The notes under the pieces: model-generated
Databases searched by the model: none
Told to the model about the DNA's origin: nothing
What the model saw: the letters and a program-made list of their open reading frames with translations, nothing else
Position numbers and translations under genes: made by a program
Assembly (NCBI GenBank): GCA_964589775.1
Contig: CAZPUN010000037.1
Span: 1 to 32,000, forward strand
DNA: 32,000 nt
Direction: 5' to 3'
Source of the DNA: an uncultured archaeon
GTDB lineage: Archaea > Asgardarchaeota > Thorarchaeia > Thorarchaeales > CAZPUN01
In this document: positions 2 through 13,914 of the stretch, in pieces
Layout: each line of letters opens with the position of its first letter
Position numbering within the stretch: the stretch's first letter is position 1

Positions 2-1261
2 CTTTCAATTACAAATATAACAGAAAAACCAATTCAAGAGGTATCGGGAAAAATATATTGGTATCCCAAGGAAAATATTACAATCAACCCAATTGCAATT
101 AAAATACCAAAATTAGACCCAAATGAAAGAGTAGATTTTAAGATTACAATAAAGAGTAATGTTGTTGGAACATCAATTATTCGACCGTTAGTTATTAAAT
201 TCATAGATCAAAATGGTGTAGAACATAGAGCTAGTATCAATGAAATTCCGGTCTATGTAACAGAAGAAGAAGTAGTATCCCCAGAAATTGAAGCTGCACT
301 ACAGCAAGCTGAGGCAATTAGTACTCAACCGATGTCTGCTGCAGAATCACAAAAAATAATAAAAGACGAAATCGAAGCGGCAAAAGCATTTTTAGAAACA
401 CTAGATTCATTAATGAAATCACCACAAAAAGCTTCCACAGAAGCAAGTACAACAACTACTGAACCAGTGGCAACAAGCACAACACCGGAAGTGTCGCCAT
501 TCTCAACGCCATCTGTAACAGAATCTGCATCTACAATAAAACCATCAGAACCACTCGAGATTCCGGAACACGCATTATTCGCACCACAAAAGACAGAAGA
601 ACCACTATTTGAAAGTACTACTGAAGAAAAAGTTGAAGAGAAACACGAACCATGTACTTCACCATTCAAAGATGTACCACCTAAACCAAGAAAACCAGGA
701 CGCCCTGAAGATAGCTATGATTACTTGTTCAAAGCTGTAGTTCTTGGAGAAGGAGCAGTTGGAAAAACATCGTTAGTAAATAGATTTGCAACAGGCAAAT
801 TCACGACAGATTACAAAGTTACAGTTGGTTCTCAATTTGCAGTAAAATTAACTGACATATATCCACCAGATTCAGAATATGCAATACGCGTAAAACTACA
901 AGTATGGGACCTTGCAGGCCAGGAGCGATTCCAAGGAGTTAGAAACTTATACTATGCAGGAGCAAGCGGAGGATTACTAGTATATGACGTGACTCGACGT
1001 AGATCATTCCTCGCATTAGAAAAATGGCTACAAGAGGCAGATAAATCAATCGGAAGACGAGTGCCATTCATAGTTGTAGGAAATAAGATAGACTTACCAG
1101 ACCGAGTTGTATCATTCGAAGAAGGAAAAGAATGGGCAGACAAACATGGATTCCTATATTGCGAATCAAGTGCGAAGACCGGAGAAAATGTCGGAGATAT
1201 ATTCAAAATAGTCGCAGAGATAATGTGGCTTGATATAAAAAAGAGACAAACAAAAAAATAA
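2..1261 (+). CDS. 5'-truncated fusion protein: Ig-like beta-sandwich + S/T/P/E-rich linker + C-terminal Rab-like small GTPase
   Basis: The frame is open from position 2 (LSITNITEKPIQEVSGKIYW...), so the ORF-track ATG at 332 is internal. GTPase from about 710: YDYLFK, G1 GEGAVGKT, G3 WDLAGQ, G4 NKID, G5 SAK; RabF-like VGSQF, KLQVW, YYAGA, LVYDVT. Confidence 0.9.
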   Translation, partial: LSITNITEKPIQEVSGKIYWYPKENITINPIAIKIPKLDPNERVDFKITIKSNVVGTSIIRPLVIKFIDQNGVEHRASINEIPVYVTEEEVVSPEIEAALQQAEAISTQPMSAAESQKIIKDEIEAAKAFLETLDSLMKSPQKASTEASTTTTEPVATSTTPEVSPFSTPSVTESASTIKPSEPLEIPEHALFAPQKTEEPLFESTTEEKVEEKHEPCTSPFKDVPPKPRKPGRPEDSYDYLFKAVVLGEGAVGKTSLVNRFATGKFTTDYKVTVGSQFAVKLTDIYPPDSEYAIRVKLQVWDLAGQERFQGVRNLYYAGASGGLLVYDVTRRRSFLALEKWLQEADKSIGRRVPFIVVGNKIDLPDRVVSFEEGKEWADKHGFLYCESSAKTGENVGDIFKIVAEIMWLDIKKRQTKK

Positions 1262-1348: not shown

Positions 1349-1567
1349 CTGGGAACTGTAAGACCAAAGTACATAAAAAATGCCGCACGAAAACTAGTTG
1401 AGTTGTACCCAGACCGCTTTAATACAGACTTTGAAAATAACAAGAGAGTTGTGGATGAAGTCACAGACGCATATTCAAAGAAGCTTAGAAATAGAATTGC
1501 AGGGTACGTCACTAGATATATTAGAACCAAGATCCAAGAAGAAGAAATTGAAGCTAGTTCTAGCTAA
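1349..1567 (+). CDS. rps17e: 30S ribosomal protein eS17 (S17e)
   Basis: Manual translation: (M)GTVRPKYIKNAARKLVELYPDRFNTDFENNKRVVDEVTDAYSKKLRNRIAGYVTR...; DFENNK and SKKLRNRIAGYVT are eS17 signatures. Apparent start is CTG at 1349, after GGAAGGTG. Absent from the ORF track. Confidence 0.95.
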   Translation: MGTVRPKYIKNAARKLVELYPDRFNTDFENNKRVVDEVTDAYSKKLRNRIAGYVTRYIRTKIQEEEIEASSS

Positions 1568-1592
1568 TTCTTTTTAAAAATAAAAGTGCCAA

Positions 1593-2657
1593 TTAGGCAC
1601 TCTTTATCCATACTTTTGTTGTACTAAGTTCATGTAAGATATCATCACAAGCAGATTCAAAATTACTATAACCTACATATTCTGCTCCAGCGGCGTATTC
1701 ATGACCACCGCCACCAAACATTTTTGCAATTTCATTACATAAAACATCGTCAGTCGTTCGACGAATACCCATTAATCCGGAATTACCGACCGTAATAAGT
1801 ACATCTGCAACTTCATAACTTTTCCCAGATTTATCAACTAGATTCTTAGGGTCGCTCAAATAATTTGCAACATCAGTAGTTGTAATCCCTTCAGGAATAA
1901 AAACAATACGGACAAGCTTTCCATGAATCTTTTGAGAACATGATTTTTCCAATAGGCCTTTCATTTTTTTCGCTCTAAGCTTTCGATAAGCTTTCACTTG
2001 AAGCCTATAATTATCATCAGGTATTATCTTTCGTTTTTCATCCCAAAGAGCTGAGATTCCTTTGTTAGCCAATAATAATGAGATGTGGTGTAACTCTTTT
2101 TGTAGCTCTGCATTACTATCACTAAAGCTATATCTAATATGGGTTATAAGATCTGAAAGCACTTGTGATGATTCCAGTTCTTGCAAATTAAAGTCAGAAT
2201 CATGTGCTACCCTTGCAAGCTCGATACTAATATCATCGTTTGGCATTAATACTTTTTGAGCAATTTCTGCAGCACATAATGATTTGACAATTTTAAGAAC
2301 GGGTGAATTTGGTAGGGATAATATGAATTTAATTGCCGATGCATGCCATTCGTGATGATCCAACCATACAATCCGACAACCTTGTTTCGCTAATGAGGAT
2401 AACGTGCTCAATACTACTTTTTCTGAACTCTTATCAATACCAAGATCTGTAATTAAAACCAATGTATCATGATAAGACTTTAAATTAGGAAAATATTCTT
2501 CGAGATCACCATAATCCAAAAATAAAGTCTTATATTCCATATTCTTTTTCATGGCGTATCGAATAGATATAGCTGCAGAACATATACCATCAGGATCTTT
2601 TGCATGCGATATAATTAGTACTTTCGAATATTTTTTAGACTTATCACTTGTAGCCAT
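1593..2657 (-). CDS. DHH/DHHA1 family phosphoesterase (NrnA/RecJ-like)
   Basis: Motifs HxxDPDG, TDLG, LDHH and C-terminal GGGGHEYAAG. Start moved to ATG 2657, downstream of a GAGGAG SD. Confidence 0.9.
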   Translation of the reverse strand: MATSDKSKKYSKVLIISHAKDPDGICSAAISIRYAMKKNMEYKTLFLDYGDLEEYFPNLKSYHDTLVLITDLGIDKSSEKVVLSTLSSLAKQGCRIVWLDHHEWHASAIKFILSLPNSPVLKIVKSLCAAEIAQKVLMPNDDISIELARVAHDSDFNLQELESSQVLSDLITHIRYSFSDSNAELQKELHHISLLLANKGISALWDEKRKIIPDDNYRLQVKAYRKLRAKKMKGLLEKSCSQKIHGKLVRIVFIPEGITTTDVANYLSDPKNLVDKSGKSYEVADVLITVGNSGLMGIRRTTDDVLCNEIAKMFGGGGHEYAAGAEYVGYSNFESACDDILHELSTTKVWIKSA

Positions 2658-6523: not shown

Positions 6524-7435
6524 ATGTTTGTACGACTTACGAAAGAAGGAAATGTTGGGATTGGAAGAGGCGATCCTGAAGAAGAAATCTTGATTAGTTT
6601 TGGTGAAATTTACGATATGATTGAAGTCTTAAAAAAAGCAATAGCAACACCAAAATATGAGGGATACATAAAAAGGACTTCGCCAAACCTGCCAAGACAA
6701 AAAGTTGGGGCAAAATCAAAATCCGCATCACAGATTTATTTAATTGACGGAAAAACATCAATTGTTTTCCATAATAATGAAGTGAATAAAATTATAGATA
6801 TATTACAAAACCTACCCGCACCAGCTACAAAATCATCAGGTGGTAAATACGTATTTATTCCAGAAAAGAACAGCAAACAGATAAATATAGGAAAAGACCC
6901 ATCAAAACCGATTGTTGAACTATCTGTTGTTGATGCAAGTAGATTATATTTGTTATTTAAAGCAAGTTTAAAGGCGGATTATTTCATATCGGAAATCAAT
7001 CTTATTAACGAAGGAACCCTAATTTTGGAGAAACCTGAAGGCCCCAAATGGATATTAAAATCCGATAAAAGCTCGATATCAATAAACGCATTTGATGTTG
7101 AAAGTCTTCTATTTGATTTAGGAACAAATATATCAAAAATATTAGGTGAATCAATTGGTTCCATAGAGCGCGATAAATTAGGATCCATTAGACGTAAAAG
7201 CCTAATCAATGGTTTTGATGAAAGAATGACAAATACTATTGAAAAAACATATGGAAAGAAACCACCCTTCAAACAAAAAATCAAAAAATTACTAGAAAAG
7301 GCTATGGACCCCACATTAGACGCAGATAGTCGTTTTGATACGTTCTTAAAAATAATTGACAACATAGAGAAAAACATCGACATTCATACAGCAGAGATTA
7401 TCCTAAAGGATTTGAACCAACTGATCAATATTTAG
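6524..7435 (+). CDS. Hypothetical protein with about 4 beta-hairpin-helix repeats
   Basis: Long ORF with GAGGTG SD before ATG 6524; no recognised family. Confidence 0.75.
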   Translation: MFVRLTKEGNVGIGRGDPEEEILISFGEIYDMIEVLKKAIATPKYEGYIKRTSPNLPRQKVGAKSKSASQIYLIDGKTSIVFHNNEVNKIIDILQNLPAPATKSSGGKYVFIPEKNSKQINIGKDPSKPIVELSVVDASRLYLLFKASLKADYFISEINLINEGTLILEKPEGPKWILKSDKSSISINAFDVESLLFDLGTNISKILGESIGSIERDKLGSIRRKSLINGFDERMTNTIEKTYGKKPPFKQKIKKLLEKAMDPTLDADSRFDTFLKIIDNIEKNIDIHTAEIILKDLNQLINI

Positions 7436-8127
7436 AAGCTCGTATCATACGAGCTAATATTTTTCACTTTCTTGATTACAGATTTTATTAATTCATTCTT
7501 TTTCAGATTTTCAATTGCTTGTTTTACAACGCTATTAGGCAATCTGAGCTTTTCAGCAATATCATCAACACTTAGAGGTTTCTCGGATGCTAATATTAAA
7601 AAGAATATTTTCTTGGTTGTTTCATCAAATCCGGCTTCAAATAAAGCTTCATCTAACGATCCTAAAATTCTCTGTCGTTCTCTTAAAATTAAAATCCGCT
7701 CTTTTTCGATTTTCTTAAGACGTTCATCTAAATCTTTAATACGACCAATTTGGGATCTTATGAATTCATTAAGTTCTTTACTAATCGATCTAGATTCATC
7801 ATCATATTCTTCATCTAAATCAGGGAAATCAACCATACGAATTCGAAATTCATGAGGACCAAACCACATAGAAATCGCAATACTACGATTGATTTCAAAA
7901 TATGTACGCTGGGGTCCTAATGGGCTTGGAACTGTGCGTTCTGTAATAAATCCTTTTTGATGTAAAATTTCGAGATGTTTAACTACTGCGCGCTGACTGA
8001 TGCCAAGTTCTTTTGCTAACTCGAATGCATAATATGGCTTATGTGACAACAGCTCGAGAATTGCCCGTCGTGTAGGATTCCCGAGGATAAATAAGATATC
8101 GTCAATGAACATACCATTAGGACTCAT
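7432..8127 (-). CDS. ArsR-like wHTH heat-shock regulator, Phr/HSR1 family
   Basis: LGNPTRRAILELLSHKPYYAFELAKELGISQRAVVKHL resembles the Pyrococcus Phr N-terminus, followed by a coiled coil and a second HTH. Lies downstream of hsp20-cdc48. GGGGTGA SD precedes ATG 8127. Confidence 0.85.
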   Translation of the reverse strand: MSPNGMFIDDILFILGNPTRRAILELLSHKPYYAFELAKELGISQRAVVKHLEILHQKGFITERTVPSPLGPQRTYFEINRSIAISMWFGPHEFRIRMVDFPDLDEEYDDESRSISKELNEFIRSQIGRIKDLDERLKKIEKERILILRERQRILGSLDEALFEAGFDETTKKIFFLILASEKPLSVDDIAEKLRLPNSVVKQAIENLKKNELIKSVIKKVKNISSYDTSF

Positions 8128-8139
8128 GTTAATCACCCC

Positions 8140-8173
8140 AAAAAAATGTTTTGGATGGAGAATATTCTCCATC
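8140..8173 (-). terminator. Perfect 20-bp palindrome plus T tract between cdc48 and the regulator
   Basis: GATGGAGAATATTCTCCATC (8154-8173) lies just after the cdc48 stop and is followed on the minus strand by CAAAACATTTTTTT. Confidence 0.55.
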
Positions 8174-8178
8174 AGGGT

Positions 8179-10329
8179 TTATTTACCTAACGCTTCGCGA
8201 GATTTCTTGATGTTTTCAAATGCCTGCTCGAAGTGCTTCTTCTTGACCGTGTATTTTTCAAGTTCTTCTTCAGATTCTGGAATCTTACCGGATGTAATGT
8301 ATTCGCGAATTGCTAGCATTACAGCATCATTGACCAATGCCTCAATTTCAGCACCTGTGAATCCATCAGTCTTCTCAACCCATTCTTCAATATTTACATC
8401 TTTATCAATGGGCTTTCCACGAGTGTGTATCTTGAAGATCTCTTCACGTGCTTTCTTATCGGGCAAGCCAATCTCGATGATTCTATCAAATCGACCGGGT
8501 CTCAGTAGTGCTTTATCGACCATATCAAGACGGTTTGTAGCTGCAATTACTGTGACACCTTTCAATTCTTCAAGCCCATCTAGCTCGGTTAGTAGCTGAC
8601 TAATTACACGTTCAGTTACTCTGGCATCACCAAATCCTGAACCGCGTGTTGGAGCAATTGCATCGATCTCATCAAGGAATACTACACATGGTGCTGCACT
8701 TCTTGCTTTTCTGAAGGTCTCACGAACAGCTTTCTCACTTTCGCCAACCCATTTGCTGAGAAATTCAGGTCCTTTGACACTAATGAAGTTAGCTTGACTC
8801 TCATGTGCTACTGCTTTTGCAAGTAGAGTCTTTCCGGTTCCAGGAGGACCATATAGCATTATTCCCTTGGGTGGCTTTGCCTTCATGTGCTTGAAGAGCT
8901 TTCCATATTTCAATGGCCATTCAATTGTTTCACGAAGTTGTTGCTTGGCTTCTTCTAATCCACCAATGTCATCCCATGTGACTTCAGGCGTCTCAATCAT
9001 TACTTCGCGCATTGCAGATGGCTCAACTTCCAAGAGCGCATTCATGAAATCATCCTGTGTGACTACAATCTTGTTAAGTATCTCAGCAGGAATGACCTCT
9101 TGTTCAAGATCGATTTCTGGCAATACACGTCTTAGTGCATGAATTGCAGCTTCTTTACATAGCATTTGCAAATCTGCACCTACAAAGCCATGAGTTAGAT
9201 CCGCAATCTTCATGAGATCTACATCTTTGTCTAATGGCATACCACGAGTGTGTATCTGCAAGATCTCATATCGACCCTTCTTATCGGGAATTCCGATTTC
9301 GATTTCTCTATCGAATCGACCACCACGCCTTAGAGCAGGATCTAATGCATTAGGTCTGTTTGTTGCTCCAATTACTACAACTTGACCACGATCTTTGAGA
9401 CCGTCCATCAATGCCAATAGTTGTGCAACCACTCTACGTTCAACTTCACCTGTAACTTCCTCACGCTTTGGTGCAATTGAATCAAGTTCATCAATGAAGA
9501 TTATACTTGGCGCATTTTTCTGTGCTTCTTCAAAGATCTCTCTTAATCTGCCTTCACTTTCACCATAGAACTTGGACATGATTTCAGGACCACTGATCGA
9601 ATAGAAGTTCGAATCAGTTTCATTAGCAACTGCTTTTGCCAATAAGGTCTTTCCAGTTCCGGGAGGACCGTAAAGCAATACACCCTTTGGTGCTTCGATT
9701 CCAAGTCTCTTGAATAGTTCAGGATGTCGTAGAGGTAGTTCAATCATTTCACGAATCTTTTGGATTGCTTTGTCCAAGCCACCAATGTCTTCATAAGTGA
9801 CACGTGGTACTTTCTGAGGTAATTCAGTTACAGGCTTGTCAGCTAATTCAACTGTAGTATCAATACCAATTAACGCTGCATCGCCCTTTGGTGTAAATCC
9901 AGTGATCATGAAAGGAATCTTGCGACCCATAATATTGACATCAATAATATCACCAATCATAACGACACGATTCTCAAGTAAGCGTGCTAAGTATTCTTCA
10001 CCACCAGATATTGTGTATTGTGTTGTCGGTGCAATTTTTACAGTTTTTGCTACCTTAGGTACAATCTTTCGAATAGTTACTTTGTCATCAATACCAACAC
10101 CTGCATTCTTTCGAATCGCACCATCAATTCTAATTATTCCTTTTCCTGTATCTTCAGGATAACCTCTCCAAGATATTGCAGCTGTTGCTTTTCGACCAGT
10201 GATCTCAATAACATCTCCGGTTCCAATACCCAATTCTTCTGCAACTTTTGGATCTAATCGTGCAATACCACGACCGACATCGCGAGTCTTGGCTTCTGCA
10301 ACTCTGACTACTGCTGTCTTTTCACTCAT
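8179..10329 (-). CDS. cdc48: Cdc48/VCP/VAT AAA+ ATPase
   Basis: N-domain ([10 protein letters not shown]) and two AAA modules with [20 protein letters not shown] and SRH ([19 protein letters not shown]). Start at ATG 10329 after GGAGGT. Confidence 0.97.
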
Positions 10330-10382
10330 AGTCATCAACCTCCATTTCCATTTTATTTTTTTATATATAATTTCAATAAACG

Positions 10383-10403
10383 AAAAAAAGGACTGAAAAG
10401 TCC
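10383..10403 (-). terminator. Hairpin plus U7 after hsp20
   Basis: Minus strand reads GGACT-TTTC-AGTCC-TTTTTTT, 8 nt after the hsp20 stop. Confidence 0.6.
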
Positions 10404-10411
10404 AATTAATC

Positions 10412-10921
10412 TTACTCAATCTTGATATCGTATTCTTCAGGCTTCAAAGGCTTCTTGGTTTTAATGGTGACTTCAAGGATTCCATTCTTGAATGTCGCCT
10501 TGATCGATTTGGGATCAATTTCAACATCGAATGGAATTGTATTCTTGAACTTTCTCTTTTCACCTTCAGCACTTATGGATAGTGAATTCTCAGTCGCCTT
10601 TAGCTTGATATTTTCTTTTTCAACACCGGGTAGTTCTGCAGTGACTCTAATGACACCAGCTTCACTGTCATATACTACATCAGTGTATGGCTTTCTAATA
10701 CCTTCTTCAATAAGTTGCCCTCGCATAGGATCAACATTTCCAAAGGTTCTCACATGTGGCACACCATCAGGACCAATCGTAGCTGTGAATCCATACACGA
10801 TGGGTTCGTCGCCTTTTGGTTCGATGGTTCTTAGATTCTTGAATATTCTTTCAAACATTTCTTCGGTTTCTCTGAATGTCTTATCGAATTCATCGAATAT
10901 GTCTCTGAATCTCCATGACAT
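10412..10921 (-). CDS. hsp20: Small heat shock protein Hsp20 (archaeal type)
   Basis: [34 protein letters not shown] alpha-crystallin motifs; GGAGGTGA SD. Confidence 0.95.
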
Positions 10922-11035: not shown

Positions 11036-11440
11036 TTAGCCGCTTTCGGCTTTCTTCCGTCTTGCCATCAGTGCCGCTTTAAGATCACCCATCAAAGCTG
11101 CACGAGGATTCATAGGACGACGGGGTGCAGGTGATGGGGCTGCCGCCATTGATGGGGTAGGTTTGGGTGCAGAAGCCATTGATGCAGCAGGGGAGGGGGC
11201 GCCTATTGAGGAACCACCAGAGGGGGCAGAAGCTGCAACAGGGCGAGATGCTAACTCAGAAACTTTTCTATTTAAATCAGATATTTTAGATTCCAAATCG
11301 GCTACCGTTTCCTCTAGCTTAACAATGTGGTCAGATAATATAGTCACCACTCGCGTTACAATTTGTCCAAGTTCTTTAATTCTTTCAGCTGTAGGATCTT
11401 CGAGTACCCATTCAAATTCTTTCTCTAATTCATCGGTAAT
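11036..11440 (-). CDS. Small coiled-coil / Pro-Ala-Ser-rich / WH2- or VASP-FAB-like protein
   Basis: The frame stays open upstream of the GTG at 11350 with helical sequence (TDELEKEFEWVLED...). Heptad repeat IVKLEETVADLESKISDLNRKVSEL. C-terminus PRAALMGDLKAALMARRKKAESG. Start is uncertain (ATT 11440 or GTG 11350). Confidence 0.8.
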   Translation of the reverse strand: MTDELEKEFEWVLEDPTAERIKELGQIVTRVVTILSDHIVKLEETVADLESKISDLNRKVSELASRPVAASAPSGGSSIGAPSPAASMASAPKPTPSMAAAPSPAPRRPMNPRAALMGDLKAALMARRKKAESG

Positions 11441-11515
11441 TGTGATAGCCCCCTGAACGGAGTTCTTCTTAATAATAATTTATATTTTGATTAATATAAC
11501 AGTTTCTATACGATA

Positions 11516-12886
11516 CTATGAAATTATGGACTTCATTAAGTCTAATATGACATTAATATATTGATTCATCTTTTGATTATTCGTAGATTCACATGTAACC
11601 CTTATTTTTGGTTCGGTTCCGGATGGACGTACTAGAACCCACCCATCATCAAGCACCATACCAAAACCATCAACATCAACTATTTCGACAATGTTATTAA
11701 ATTTTTCAGGTAGAATTTTACTTACTTGTTTCATAACATCCGCTTTCTTATCATCATCACATTTTATACTGACACGCCTATGAGGAAATTCTGGAATTTC
11801 AGACATAAGTTCGCTAAACTTTTTATTTTCTTTTGCCATGATTTCTAAAAGTACTCCTATTGCCATTAGCGTATCAGGGCCATAATGGTGTTCTGGAAAG
11901 ATATATACACCACAGGATTCGCCACCAAAAATACCTTTTTTATTATACAAGGCATAAGCGACATTTATATCGCCGACAGGTGTGCGTATGACATTCCCAC
12001 CAGCTTTTTTTACTAAATCGTCCAATACAAAAGAGCTATCAACAGTAGTAACAATTGTACCCTTTTTGTTTTTCAAATATCGCAATGCGATCATAGTAAT
12101 TACTCGGTCTGCGCTATGCAGTTTTCCGGTCTCATCAATAAATACTACACGGTCTGCATCACCATCGTGCGCAATCCCAAGATCATAATGCCTTTGCCGT
12201 ATTAGAGAGAACAACTCTTCAAGAGATTCTTCATTAGGTTCAGATTTTCGCCCCGGAAAATATCCATCAGGATGTGAATTTAATGTTGATACACGTGCAT
12301 TTAATTTTCGAAGAAGATAAGGTGAAACTAACGATGCCGCACCATTCCCGGGATCTATTAGAATTTCAAATTTTTTAGATCGGATAAGTTCACTTGAAAT
12401 GCTTCGGATAACGTAATCAATATGATCATCGACTAAGGAATCATCAACAGAATATTTACCTATATTATCCCAATTTGCATAATTAAATGCTTTATCAAAA
12501 TAAATTTTTTCAATTTTCAATTCTTCTTCAGGGGGAATACCTAACCCATCTTTTCCCCAAAATTTAATTCCAACATATTCAGGAGGATTATGAGAAGCAG
12601 TTATTATTACACCCGCACGATATTTATTTTTTTTAAGACTAAAAGCAAGAGTTGGTGTTGGAATTACACCTGCATCAACTACATTAATAGACGTTGCCAT
12701 AAGACCGCTCTGAAATGCCATCTGTATAATTGGAGACGTCGTACGAACATCACGGCCTACTAAAACAGTTCCTTGCTTCAAATATGTTCCAAACGCAAGA
12801 CCAAGTTCCAAAGCCATTTCTGGAGTAATGCCACTTCCAAATATCTTTCGAATACCAGTCGTACCAAATAGTTTTCTGCGACTCAT
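11516..12886 (-). CDS. glmM: Phosphoglucosamine mutase / phosphohexomutase
   Basis: FGTTGIR, TASHNP (catalytic Ser), DGDADR, GESCG, RPSGTEP. Substrate specificity (GlmM versus PMM/PGM) is not resolvable by eye. Confidence 0.85.
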   Translation of the reverse strand: MSRRKLFGTTGIRKIFGSGITPEMALELGLAFGTYLKQGTVLVGRDVRTTSPIIQMAFQSGLMATSINVVDAGVIPTPTLAFSLKKNKYRAGVIITASHNPPEYVGIKFWGKDGLGIPPEEELKIEKIYFDKAFNYANWDNIGKYSVDDSLVDDHIDYVIRSISSELIRSKKFEILIDPGNGAASLVSPYLLRKLNARVSTLNSHPDGYFPGRKSEPNEESLEELFSLIRQRHYDLGIAHDGDADRVVFIDETGKLHSADRVITMIALRYLKNKKGTIVTTVDSSFVLDDLVKKAGGNVIRTPVGDINVAYALYNKKGIFGGESCGVYIFPEHHYGPDTLMAIGVLLEIMAKENKKFSELMSEIPEFPHRRVSIKCDDDKKADVMKQVSKILPEKFNNIVEIVDVDGFGMVLDDGWVLVRPSGTEPKIRVTCESTNNQKMNQYINVILDLMKSIIS

Positions 12887-13128
12887 AAAAAGCACCTAAG
12901 GATATAAAAAATATTTAGCGTTTAAATATTATGGACGCCATATTTTCAAATAATCGAAAAGACTTAATAATAGAGTTGATATGATATATGTTCAGAGAAA
13001 TATCTATTAAAGATGAAAAATAATAATTAGTCATAACCACATTATGGTGAAAATACATCGCATTTCAAAGCGATGATGAATCGCCTAAAAGTTAATAAAA
13101 GTGTAAGCATATAATATAAATCGAGCAA

Positions 13129-13306: not shown

Positions 13307-13371
13307 CAAATTAATATAAATGTAATATAATTTAGAAAGGAAAATCTTTATACATGCAAGGATGTGACCCC

Positions 13372-13914
13372 ATGAGCTCTACAAGTTACGATTATCTCTT
13401 TAAAGTTGTAGTTCTTGGAGAAGGAGCAGTTGGAAAAACCGCACTTACCACGAGATTCGCACATGGTTTCTTTAAGTCTGATTATAAGACAACAATTGGC
13501 TCTCAGTTTGCAGTTAAAGCTGTAGCAATTAAAAATCCAAGACCTGCAAATGTAAAATTACAAATATGGGATGTCGCTGGACAACAGCGATTCCAAATTC
13601 TAAGGCCAACATACTATAAAGGCGCTGCAGGTGGAATATTAGTCTATGATGTAACTCGACGAAGAACATTTTTACTATTGGACGAATGGCTTCAAGAAAT
13701 TAAGAAAGCCATTGGTAAAATGATTCCGCTAGTTCTCGTAGCAAATAAAATAGATTTACCAGATAGAGCGGTCACAACTGAGGAAGGAAAAGCTTTTGCT
13801 GAAGCACACGGCATGCCATATATAGAATCCAGCGCTGCAACCGGAGAAAATGTAGTTGACTTATTCGCAACCCTTGCGGAGTTGCTTGTGAAACAAAGGG
13901 AGGGAATAATTTAA
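13372..13914 (+). CDS. Rab-like small GTPase (stand-alone)
   Basis: YDYLFK, GEGAVGKT, IGSQF, KLQIWDVAGQ, YYKGA, LVYDVT, NKID, SAA. GAAAATCTTTATA lies about 25 nt upstream of ATG 13372, suggesting a leaderless transcript. Confidence 0.93.
   Translation: MSSTSYDYLFKVVVLGEGAVGKTALTTRFAHGFFKSDYKTTIGSQFAVKAVAIKNPRPANVKLQIWDVAGQQRFQILRPTYYKGAAGGILVYDVTRRRTFLLLDEWLQEIKKAIGKMIPLVLVANKIDLPDRAVTTEEGKAFAEAHGMPYIESSAATGENVVDLFATLAELLVKQREGII

Follow-up and report, generated by a model that had tools for sequence, protein, structure and literature searches.

Introduction

Does a small coiled-coil protein encoded on the minus strand of a Thorarchaeales contig act on the archaeal actin skeleton? The only Asgard actin regulators named in the literature that we found are profilins and gelsolins, and WH2-like motifs have been described in Asgards only within gelsolin linkers (PMC9433394; bioRxiv 10.1101/2025.11.30.690169). 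The polyproline partners of Asgard profilins are still to be identified (PMC8410842). A 2026 study of crawling motility names formins and Ena/VASP as the polymerases known elsewhere, reports that motility occurs without known formins or Ena/VASP, and recovered profilin, gelsolins, an ARF GTPase and BAR proteins by co-immunoprecipitation with Lokiactin (PMC13716822).

The window analyzed here is a stretch of 32,000 nucleotides from an uncultured Thorarchaeales archaeon (contig CAZPUN010000037.1, positions 1–32,000). An earlier sequence-only reading of one gene in it had proposed an actin regulator composed of a coiled coil, a Pro-rich linker and a tail resembling WH2 or the F-actin-binding (FAB) helix of VASP. 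A literature search for this Asgard coiled-coil family returned no describing paper, and the family is unannotated and undescribed in the sources that we found.

Gene and reading frame

The gene, the start assigned to it by automatic calling and its putative promoter are as follows.

11036..11440, minus strand: coding sequence of 134 residues plus a TAA stop (open frame and synonymous bias; non-canonical start).
11348..11350, minus strand: GTG taken as the start by automatic gene calling, giving a truncated form of 104 residues (gene calling; ESM Atlas).
11485..11510, minus strand: putative archaeal promoter, TATA-like TTATATTAA inside an intergenic block (inferred from alignment A7).

In the translation of 11036–11515, the minus-strand open frame spans 147 codons (11036..11479), ends with TAA at 11036–11038 and holds both of the peptides quoted in the sequence-only reading. 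No in-frame ATG, GTG or TTG is present in this frame upstream of the GTG at 11350, so the 134-residue form either requires a near-cognate start, with ATT at 11440 (the one previously assumed) or ATC at 11446 as the options, or conceals an assembly flaw. Comparison with a 90%-identical relative (P0001/L210) shows 12 synonymous-only differences and one replacement over the 34 codons from Gly-Ala-Ile-Thr (∼11452) to GTG 11350; the nine codons further 5′ are unrelated between the two. The family-invariant residues F9, W11, L13, D15, P16, L24 and G25 are all encoded 5′ of GTG 11350 (alignment A1). Judged from these comparisons, the stretch upstream of the GTG is translated, and the synonymous bias and the invariant residues together place the true protein start near 11440–11452. 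The relative has an ATG at the start of its protein, where the window lacks the equivalent bases (a 7-nt gap in alignment A7). Automatic annotation truncates the gene as a result of this start-codon problem, and the ESM Atlas entry is the GTG form only. Approximately 20 bases with a TATA-like core at 11485–11510 are identical to those of L210 and are flanked on both sides by diverged sequence (alignment A7); this block is plausibly the promoter of the coiled-coil gene.

Protein architecture

An AlphaFold2 (AF2) model built on a 36-sequence alignment bears out the three-part layout that had been claimed for the protein (a coiled coil, a Pro/Ala/Ser linker and a terminal helix), with helices at residues 3–14, 18–65 and 112–133 and disorder at residues 66–111. 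The segments map to the minus strand as follows.

11399..11434, minus strand: helix 1, residues 3–14, with the order-wide motif [DE]-F-E-W-[AV]-L-x-D-P (AF2; F9, W11, L13, D15 and P16 invariant in alignment A1).
11246..11389, minus strand: long helix, residues 18–65 (AF2 pLDDT 93–98; heptad register).
11108..11245, minus strand: disordered Pro/Ala/Ser linker, residues 66–111 (AF2 pLDDT ∼50; composition).
11042..11107, minus strand: conserved C-terminal helix, residues 112–133 (AF2 pLDDT 80–92; alignment A1).

The first part of the long helix is a conserved L-G-x-V-V segment and the second part is a heptad coiled coil of variable sequence, with Leu, Ile, Val, Met or Phe at 76% of the a and d positions and mostly Leu at d. 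The linker contains 23% Pro without any run of three or more. The core of the C-terminal helix reads h-M-G-[DE]-L-K-x-x-L-x-A-R-R-K-K and is followed by a short acidic end; M117, L120, K121, L124, A126, R127 and R128 are invariant within the order (alignment A1).

Searches of Pfam and NCBIfam with the whole protein gave nothing above threshold, with sub-threshold coiled-coil noise only. Matches of the full profile to PDB sequences are to generic coiled coils, many of them trimeric. No usable named neighbor was found in the ESM Atlas, where the structural matches are generic long helices. An ESCRT-III MIM1 motif ([DE]-x-x-L-x-x-R-L-x-x-L-[KR]) was considered for the tail and rejected after alignments A4 and A5 had been inspected: its hydrophobic residues are suitably spaced, but Glu and Phe/Leu stand where the motif has its Arg and its terminal basic residues. 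Snf7 gave no match in the protein.

Family distribution and conservation

Sequence comparison assigns the gene to an unnamed Asgard-only protein family, of which it is a Thorarchaeota-type member. An ortholog, almost always single and full-length, is present in all 41 genomes searched in the order of the window, and 75 loci were collected from a species-representative set of public Asgard metagenome-assembled genomes (MAGs), nearly all labeled Thorarchaeota. A profile built from the proteins of the order matches 279 of 400 genomes of the phylum, including three single-contig genomes of 4.3–6.0 Mb, with E values of 1e-44 to 1e-57 for members of the order and, for those of other Asgard families, 1e-8 to 1e-17. 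The remote Asgard orthologs retain the whole architecture of head helices, coiled coil, Pro-rich arm and end helix; the one in G178 (G178:C1:2628799–2629257) is 152 residues long. That the protein is real, and conserved far beyond chance, is confirmed at this level of comparison.

Named family records are `hypothetical proteins' of Thor-, Loki-, Hel-, Hod- and Promethearchaeota, and the expected restriction to Asgards holds for all of them apart from one contig. This record (P0068, labeled `Candidatus Deferrimicrobium sp.' by NCBI) is identical in sequence to a protein of an Asgard genome (G164, locus L119), so its bacterial label probably reflects a mis-binned contig. Homologs in archaea lacking actin would have spoken against a role in actin biology; every genome checked has actin except G148, an 80%-complete MAG in which no match was found. 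Tandem duplicates of the family gene occur in two non-Thor Asgard genomes, G164 (L119:85–447 and 599–973, minus strand) and G167 (L125:1040–1445 and 1428–1884, plus strand).

Selective conservation of the tail had also been predicted and is borne out: in the order the tail has a mean majority fraction of 0.82 and the linker one of 0.51, and across the Asgards the values are 0.62 and 0.46, respectively, making the tail the most conserved part of the protein. Its pan-Asgard core is P-x-S-x-R-x-x-h-[MQ]-x-E-L-K-x-L-[FL]-x-[KR]-[RK], in which E-L-K is nearly invariant. The protein from the window follows the N-terminal pattern of the family, a [DE]-F motif helix, x-P-x-x-E-K and then an L-x-x-[IV]-[IV] helix (alignments A1 and A5), as well as its C-terminal helix pattern h-[MQ]-x-E-L-K-x-[LF]-[FL]-x-[KR]-[RK], with one conservative change of Glu to Asp (G-D-L-K).

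The linkers differ between lineages. In Loki-type members the linker, which lies directly before the tail and is 25–33% Pro, contains between one and four runs of PPPP or longer, PPPPP runs included, whereas members of the order of the window, its own included, have no polyproline run. The earlier caveat that a pure polyproline run is missing thus applies to the window and its order and fails for the remote orthologs. In the ortholog from the 6.0 Mb single-contig Loki-type genome (L133:1459–1914, plus strand) the basic helix is followed by six Asp at the end of the protein, a basic-then-acidic finish that is absent from Thor members.

Genomic context in the window and in Thor loci

The gene lies between a phosphoglucosamine/phosphomannomutase-type gene and an hsp20–cdc48 pair; the nearby genes are as follows.

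7432..8172, minus strand: HTH regulator gene.
8179..10419, minus strand: cdc48.
10412..10921, minus strand: hsp20.
11516..12895: phosphoglucosamine/phosphomannomutase-type gene.
13354..13914, plus strand: gene for a Ras/Rab-like small GTPase, divergent from the mutase gene.

Across 7432–10921 hsp20 overlaps cdc48 by 8 nt and the HTH regulator gene follows; the group looks like a heat-shock unit. Since the coiled-coil gene lies 114 nt upstream of hsp20 in the same orientation, its product might serve the adjacent Hsp20 and CDC48 as a cofactor, for example through a VIM-like helix on the CDC48 N domain, and the Arg-rich tail helix would suit such a role. We regard this as extremely improbable. 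The neighborhood is not kept: a PIG-L deacetylase gene in the opposite orientation lies downstream in 73 of 73 Thor loci, and these different downstream neighbors count against a CDC48 link. Moreover, hsp20 has an upstream region of its own, and the VIM spacing R-x5-A-A-x2-R is absent on inspection. A CDC48/Hsp20 cofactor is disfavored by the non-conserved synteny.

On the other side, the pair formed by the mutase and the coiled-coil gene is kept in 72 of 74 Thor loci, a synteny that probably reflects relatedness more than function. Genes +1 to +3 of Thor loci L022–L096 encode the PIG-L deacetylase, a GT4 glycosyltransferase and a BshC-like protein, a set resembling that for bacillithiol-type thiol biosynthesis. 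In many Thor loci a Ras-family gene is found upstream of the family gene, two to three genes away (cluster 6).

The presence of an actin toolkit, which the sequence-only reading had assumed, could be verified: besides an actin gene at G000:C35:13466–14608 (439 bits), the genome of the window encodes a two-domain gelsolin and a profilin that scores at the Pfam cut-off. The actin gene is on a different contig (C35) from the coiled-coil gene (C37).

Comparison with WH2 and VASP motifs

The proposed likeness of the tail to WH2 or to VASP EVH2 finds no support as homology, with no Pfam match to WH2, WH1 or VASP_tetra and no PDB sequence match for the tail. Pfam WH2 (PF02205) gave no match at E ≤ 10 with the whole protein or with any of 38 tails, and comparison of tail profiles with PDB chains returned nothing relevant. 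LKK[TV] after the amphipathic helix is absent from every member in the alignments inspected, which contain only a Lys/Arg cluster at this position, in agreement with the earlier caveat that a canonical LKKT/V is lacking. Neither EVH1/WH1 nor a C-terminal VASP tetramerization domain was matched in Pfam, the coiled coil being N-terminal instead. The earlier interpretation is supported for the architecture, the tail conservation, the Asgard restriction and the actin toolkit and not supported for membership in WH2 or VASP EVH2.

By inspection, the tail fits the hydrophobic pattern of the WH2 helix and of the VASP FAB. For scoring, the human FAB 20-mer (FAB 259–278) was taken from PMC10340426. A pan-Asgard tail HMM of 21 positions gives 7.6 bits on this peptide, a value equaled by four of 2000 shuffles, and unrelated frames of the genome of the window reach 9.8, 9.0 and 7.2 bits at best on the same HMM; at this score the pan-Asgard tail is at chance level with respect to FAB. 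In raw BLOSUM62 scores against FAB, the tail from the window reaches 33 and a Loki tail 34, as do 20 and 17 unrelated open reading frames (those for the window tail from its own genome), respectively. One Thor subset (L018 tail, which starts with a Gly run) scores 61 raw (∼28 bits), with 14 identities in 20 and one gap, and none of 31,130 own-genome open reading frames reaches 61; part of this score is owing to the Gly run and the Arg/Lys cluster. We estimate that ∼28 bits over ∼20–25 residues corresponds to an E value near 1 in a human-sized proteome. Given the chance-level family scores, the silence of Pfam and the contribution of the Gly run, the FAB likeness is a lead and not evidence of homology.

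Common descent of the tail with the eukaryotic WH2 or Ena/VASP FAB motif is accordingly very unlikely. The Thor-subset match to human FAB and the hydrophobic spacing shared with WH2 helices would favor it, but the likeness is limited to one derived subset, the score of the family consensus is no better than chance, and the domains come in the opposite order to those of VASP, with no EVH1, GAB or VASP_tetra.

Neighbors and fusions of remote homologs

Three kinds of association were observed. The first is with an unannotated BAR-like gene, and the second and third are with small GTPases and with a gelsolin gene; the features concerned are as follows.

L111:4248–4865, plus strand; L223–L242; L109:4290–4961, minus strand: BAR-like gene (∼206 residues) beside the family gene in Loki-type genomes.
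P0021; L204:1378–2607, minus strand; L205:571–1812, plus strand; L220:202–1629, plus strand: Arf/Rag-like GTPases with the module or a tail-like end.
L195:3612–4673, plus strand: two-domain gelsolin with a Zn-ribbon end.
L195:4811–6901, plus strand: protein P0132, with an internal Pro-rich and tail motif.

In 21 of 23 loci of the Loki-type family f22, the family gene comes after the BAR-like gene in the same orientation (five of six, the sixth having an inserted gene, and 16 of 17 further loci). The order is inverted in another lineage (L109 and L122), with the BAR-like gene directly downstream, and the gene is absent from the genome of the window. The AF2 model of the BAR-like protein (pLDDT 89.9, pTM 0.72) contains three long helices. 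BAR domains make up nearly all of its top Foldseek matches, with weak E values (∼1e-2) and TM scores of 0.63/0.65 for arfaptin-2, and VIA-align against arfaptin and FAM92A BAR domains gives Z scores of 13.7, 13.5 and 13.3 over 186–191 residues, although a Z of ∼13 can be generic for helical bundles.

Arf/Rag-like small GTPases are followed by a fused module of head helix, coiled coil and E-L-K tail in P0021 (426 residues) and in proteins of G187 (409 residues) and G225 (413 residues). A fourth Arf/Rag-like GTPase (475 residues, L220), also from G187, matches more weakly and with the tail alone (E = 0.001); G187 thus carries two tail-bearing GTPase genes (L204 and L220). In G183 a Pro-rich and tail motif (31.7 bits, E = 7.7e-7) occurs in the middle of the 697-residue protein P0132, which has a C-terminal transmembrane helix and no Pfam match and is encoded 135 nt downstream of the gelsolin gene. 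The module is portable between proteins. No fusion of it to gelsolin or profilin was found in G175, G178, G183, G187, G225 or the genome of the window. A search for longer fused forms likewise found none, which is weak evidence as Pro-rich proteins crowd the results, and 14 remote loci have no actin gene within 5 kb.

These observations bear on what the end helix binds. Lipid-binding helices usually conserve periodicity only. The end helix could be a membrane-binding amphipathic polybasic helix, which would make the protein a membrane-tethered coiled coil and the tail of the GTPase fusions a Ras/Rho-type C-terminal anchor. The tail is amphipathic with a basic end (maximum 11-mer hydrophobic moment of 0.49–0.55 and net charge of +3 to +5 in Loki tails), it occupies the extreme C-terminus behind a flexible linker and is also found at the C-terminus of small GTPases, and the neighboring gene encodes a BAR-like membrane-curvature fold. 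A near-invariant Glu and a fixed E-L-K would nevertheless be unusual for a lipid-binding helix, the hydrophobic moment is low in Thor tails and that of the window (0.28–0.30), and the G183 copy of the motif lies inside a protein with a transmembrane anchor of its own, where it must be more than a membrane anchor at the C-terminus. On balance we consider a membrane helix unlikely, though a serious rival. The fixed E-L-K triplet, the conserved P-x-S-x-R cap and the internal copy in the TM-anchored protein favor a protein interface over pure lipid binding.

Which protein would dock on this interface is a closer question. With the same adaptor design, the end helix could bind a partner other than actin, such as a small GTPase, the BAR-like neighbor or another Asgard-specific protein, and the coiled coil and arm would only present the peptide. 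Strictly kept charged positions (E-L-K and P-x-S-x-R) suggest a specific protein interface, the fusions to Arf/Rag-like GTPases and the conserved pairing with an arfaptin-like BAR gene in Loki-type genomes offer partners, and no sequence test links the tail to actin binders. Arfaptin BAR domains bind Arf, Arl and Rac, as the titles of PDB entries 4dcn and 1i4d indicate. Against such a partner, no neighbor is kept across lineages (the mutase gene in Thor, an Elf1-like gene and a membrane protein in Loki f21 and the BAR-like gene in f22), the genome of the window retains the tail without the BAR-like gene, and the polyproline tracts are left unaccounted for. A non-actin partner is a possibility to be taken seriously, though we doubt it.

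Proposed function and comparison with known systems

Actin was chosen as the likeliest target because the Loki-type polyproline, the gelsolin neighbor, the BAR-like neighbor and the GTPase fusions point to a membrane–actin interface. We tentatively propose that the coiled-coil protein serves the actin and membrane machinery of Asgards as a small oligomeric adaptor, its tail docking on actin; its oligomeric state, its partner and any effect on actin are inferred. The N-terminal helices and the heptad coiled coil would pair or trimerize the protein, and the disordered Pro-rich arm would act as a flexible spacer, to which Loki-type arms may add GPPPPP-type profilin-binding sites. The near-invariant C-terminal helix would be the docking peptide, with actin as its putative target, and could lie in the hydrophobic groove flanked by subdomains 1 and 3 of actin or on the filament surface. 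With two or three such tails, each oligomer could then bring actin subunits together, tether filaments or pass on profilin–actin in the manner of VASP, BimA or MIM.

An adaptor docking on actin is consistent with the three-part build of the AF2 model and its best-conserved tail, with the distribution over all 41 genomes of the order and 279 of 400 of the phylum, restricted to Asgards and accompanied by actin in the genomes checked except G148, and with PPPPP runs placed right before the tail in Loki-type members, the layout of profilin-recruiting tracts beside actin-binding helices. The WH2/FAB-like hydrophobic pattern of the tail, the raw score of 61 for one Thor subset against human FAB (PMC10340426), the G183 motif in a membrane protein beside a gelsolin gene and the BAR-like pairing in 21 of 23 f22 loci point the same way. 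So do the ARF GTPase and BAR proteins in the Lokiactin co-immunoprecipitate (PMC13716822), considered with the fusions to Arf/Rag-like GTPases, and the archaeal precedent of arcadin-2, the last 17 residues of which form a helix that binds the crenactin groove (PMC5173319).

Several points weigh against actin. WH2/FAB homology lacks statistical support and there is no LKKT/V; Thor-order members, including that of the window, have no polyproline run; no actin gene lies within 5 kb in the 14 remote loci and no gelsolin or profilin fusion was found in the five Loki-type genomes. According to work cited in PMC8410842, published Loki profilins do not bind polyproline, and the family protein is not named in the text of the Lokiactin co-immunoprecipitation paper (PMC13716822). 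A basic amphipathic C-terminal helix after a floppy linker on small GTPases resembles a membrane anchor equally well. Taken together, the family is a plausible candidate regulator of the archaeal actin skeleton.

Four known systems show related designs, and a fifth relates to membrane anchoring. Ena/VASP EVH2 (Pro-rich region, GAB, FAB 259–278 and tetramerizing coiled coil; PMC10340426) likewise has a short basic helix together with a Pro-rich tract and an oligomerizing coiled coil, and one Thor subset comes close to its FAB pattern h-M-x-E-h-x-x-h-h-A-R-R-R-K. In contrast to Ena/VASP, the family has the coiled coil first, lacks EVH1, GAB and VASP_tetra, matches FAB at chance level in its consensus and is without polyproline in Thor members. 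MIM/MTSS1 and IRSp53 (I-BAR, Pro/Ser-rich linker and C-terminal WH2) likewise join a helical oligomerizing head through a long disordered Pro-rich linker to an actin-type helix at the C-terminus, a likeness extended by the BAR-like gene immediately beside the family gene in Loki-type genomes; the family head, however, is a simple coiled coil of ∼65 residues and not a BAR domain, and there is no LKKT/V or Pfam WH2. BimA of Burkholderia pseudomallei and B. mallei reportedly consists of a trimeric coiled coil, a Pro-rich region and WH2, and is said to mimic Ena/VASP. Its likeness to the family lies in the logic of multimerized actin-binding helices on flexible Pro-rich arms, with no sequence relation expected, BimA being a surface autotransporter with canonical WH2 motifs.

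Arcadin-2 of Pyrobaculum (PDB entry 5LY3; PMC5173319) is likened to the family by design: it is also archaeal, and its conserved C-terminal helix, made up of the last 17 residues, suffices for binding in the hydrophobic groove of an archaeal actin. It differs in being encoded in the arcade cluster beside crenactin, in its dependence on Trp and in sequestering monomers (PMC5173319), whereas the family gene lies away from actin (contigs C35 and C37 in the window genome; none within 5 kb in 14 loci) and the tail contains no Trp. C-terminal membrane-targeting helices of the MinD/FtsA type and the polybasic hypervariable regions of Ras and Rho place a terminal basic stretch after a flexible linker. 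The family shares with them a terminal amphipathic basic helix behind such a linker, on the GTPase fusions too, but differs in the invariant acidic and basic positions of its motif and in the internal copy in a TM-anchored protein.

A more specific version of the proposal is that the family is the long-sought Asgard actin assembly factor, in which a dimeric or trimeric coiled coil would display actin-binding end helices, with polyproline for profilin in Loki-type lineages, and would nucleate, elongate or tether Lokiactin filaments at the membrane in partnership with BAR-like proteins and Arf-like GTPases. We hold this version to be improbable as it stands. If it were true, the family would represent a functional equivalent of Ena/VASP, WASP or MIM from before eukaryotes, independent of or preceding the eukaryotic WH2 machinery. 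Should the tail bind membrane or another partner instead, the family would still be an undescribed Asgard-specific adaptor. It is small, widespread and unannotated, combines oligomerization, Pro-rich tracts and a conserved docking helix, and is tied by fusion or gene order to GTPases, gelsolin and BAR-like genes, and as such it offers a concrete and cheap-to-test candidate for how Lokiactin assembly starts or is coupled to membranes.
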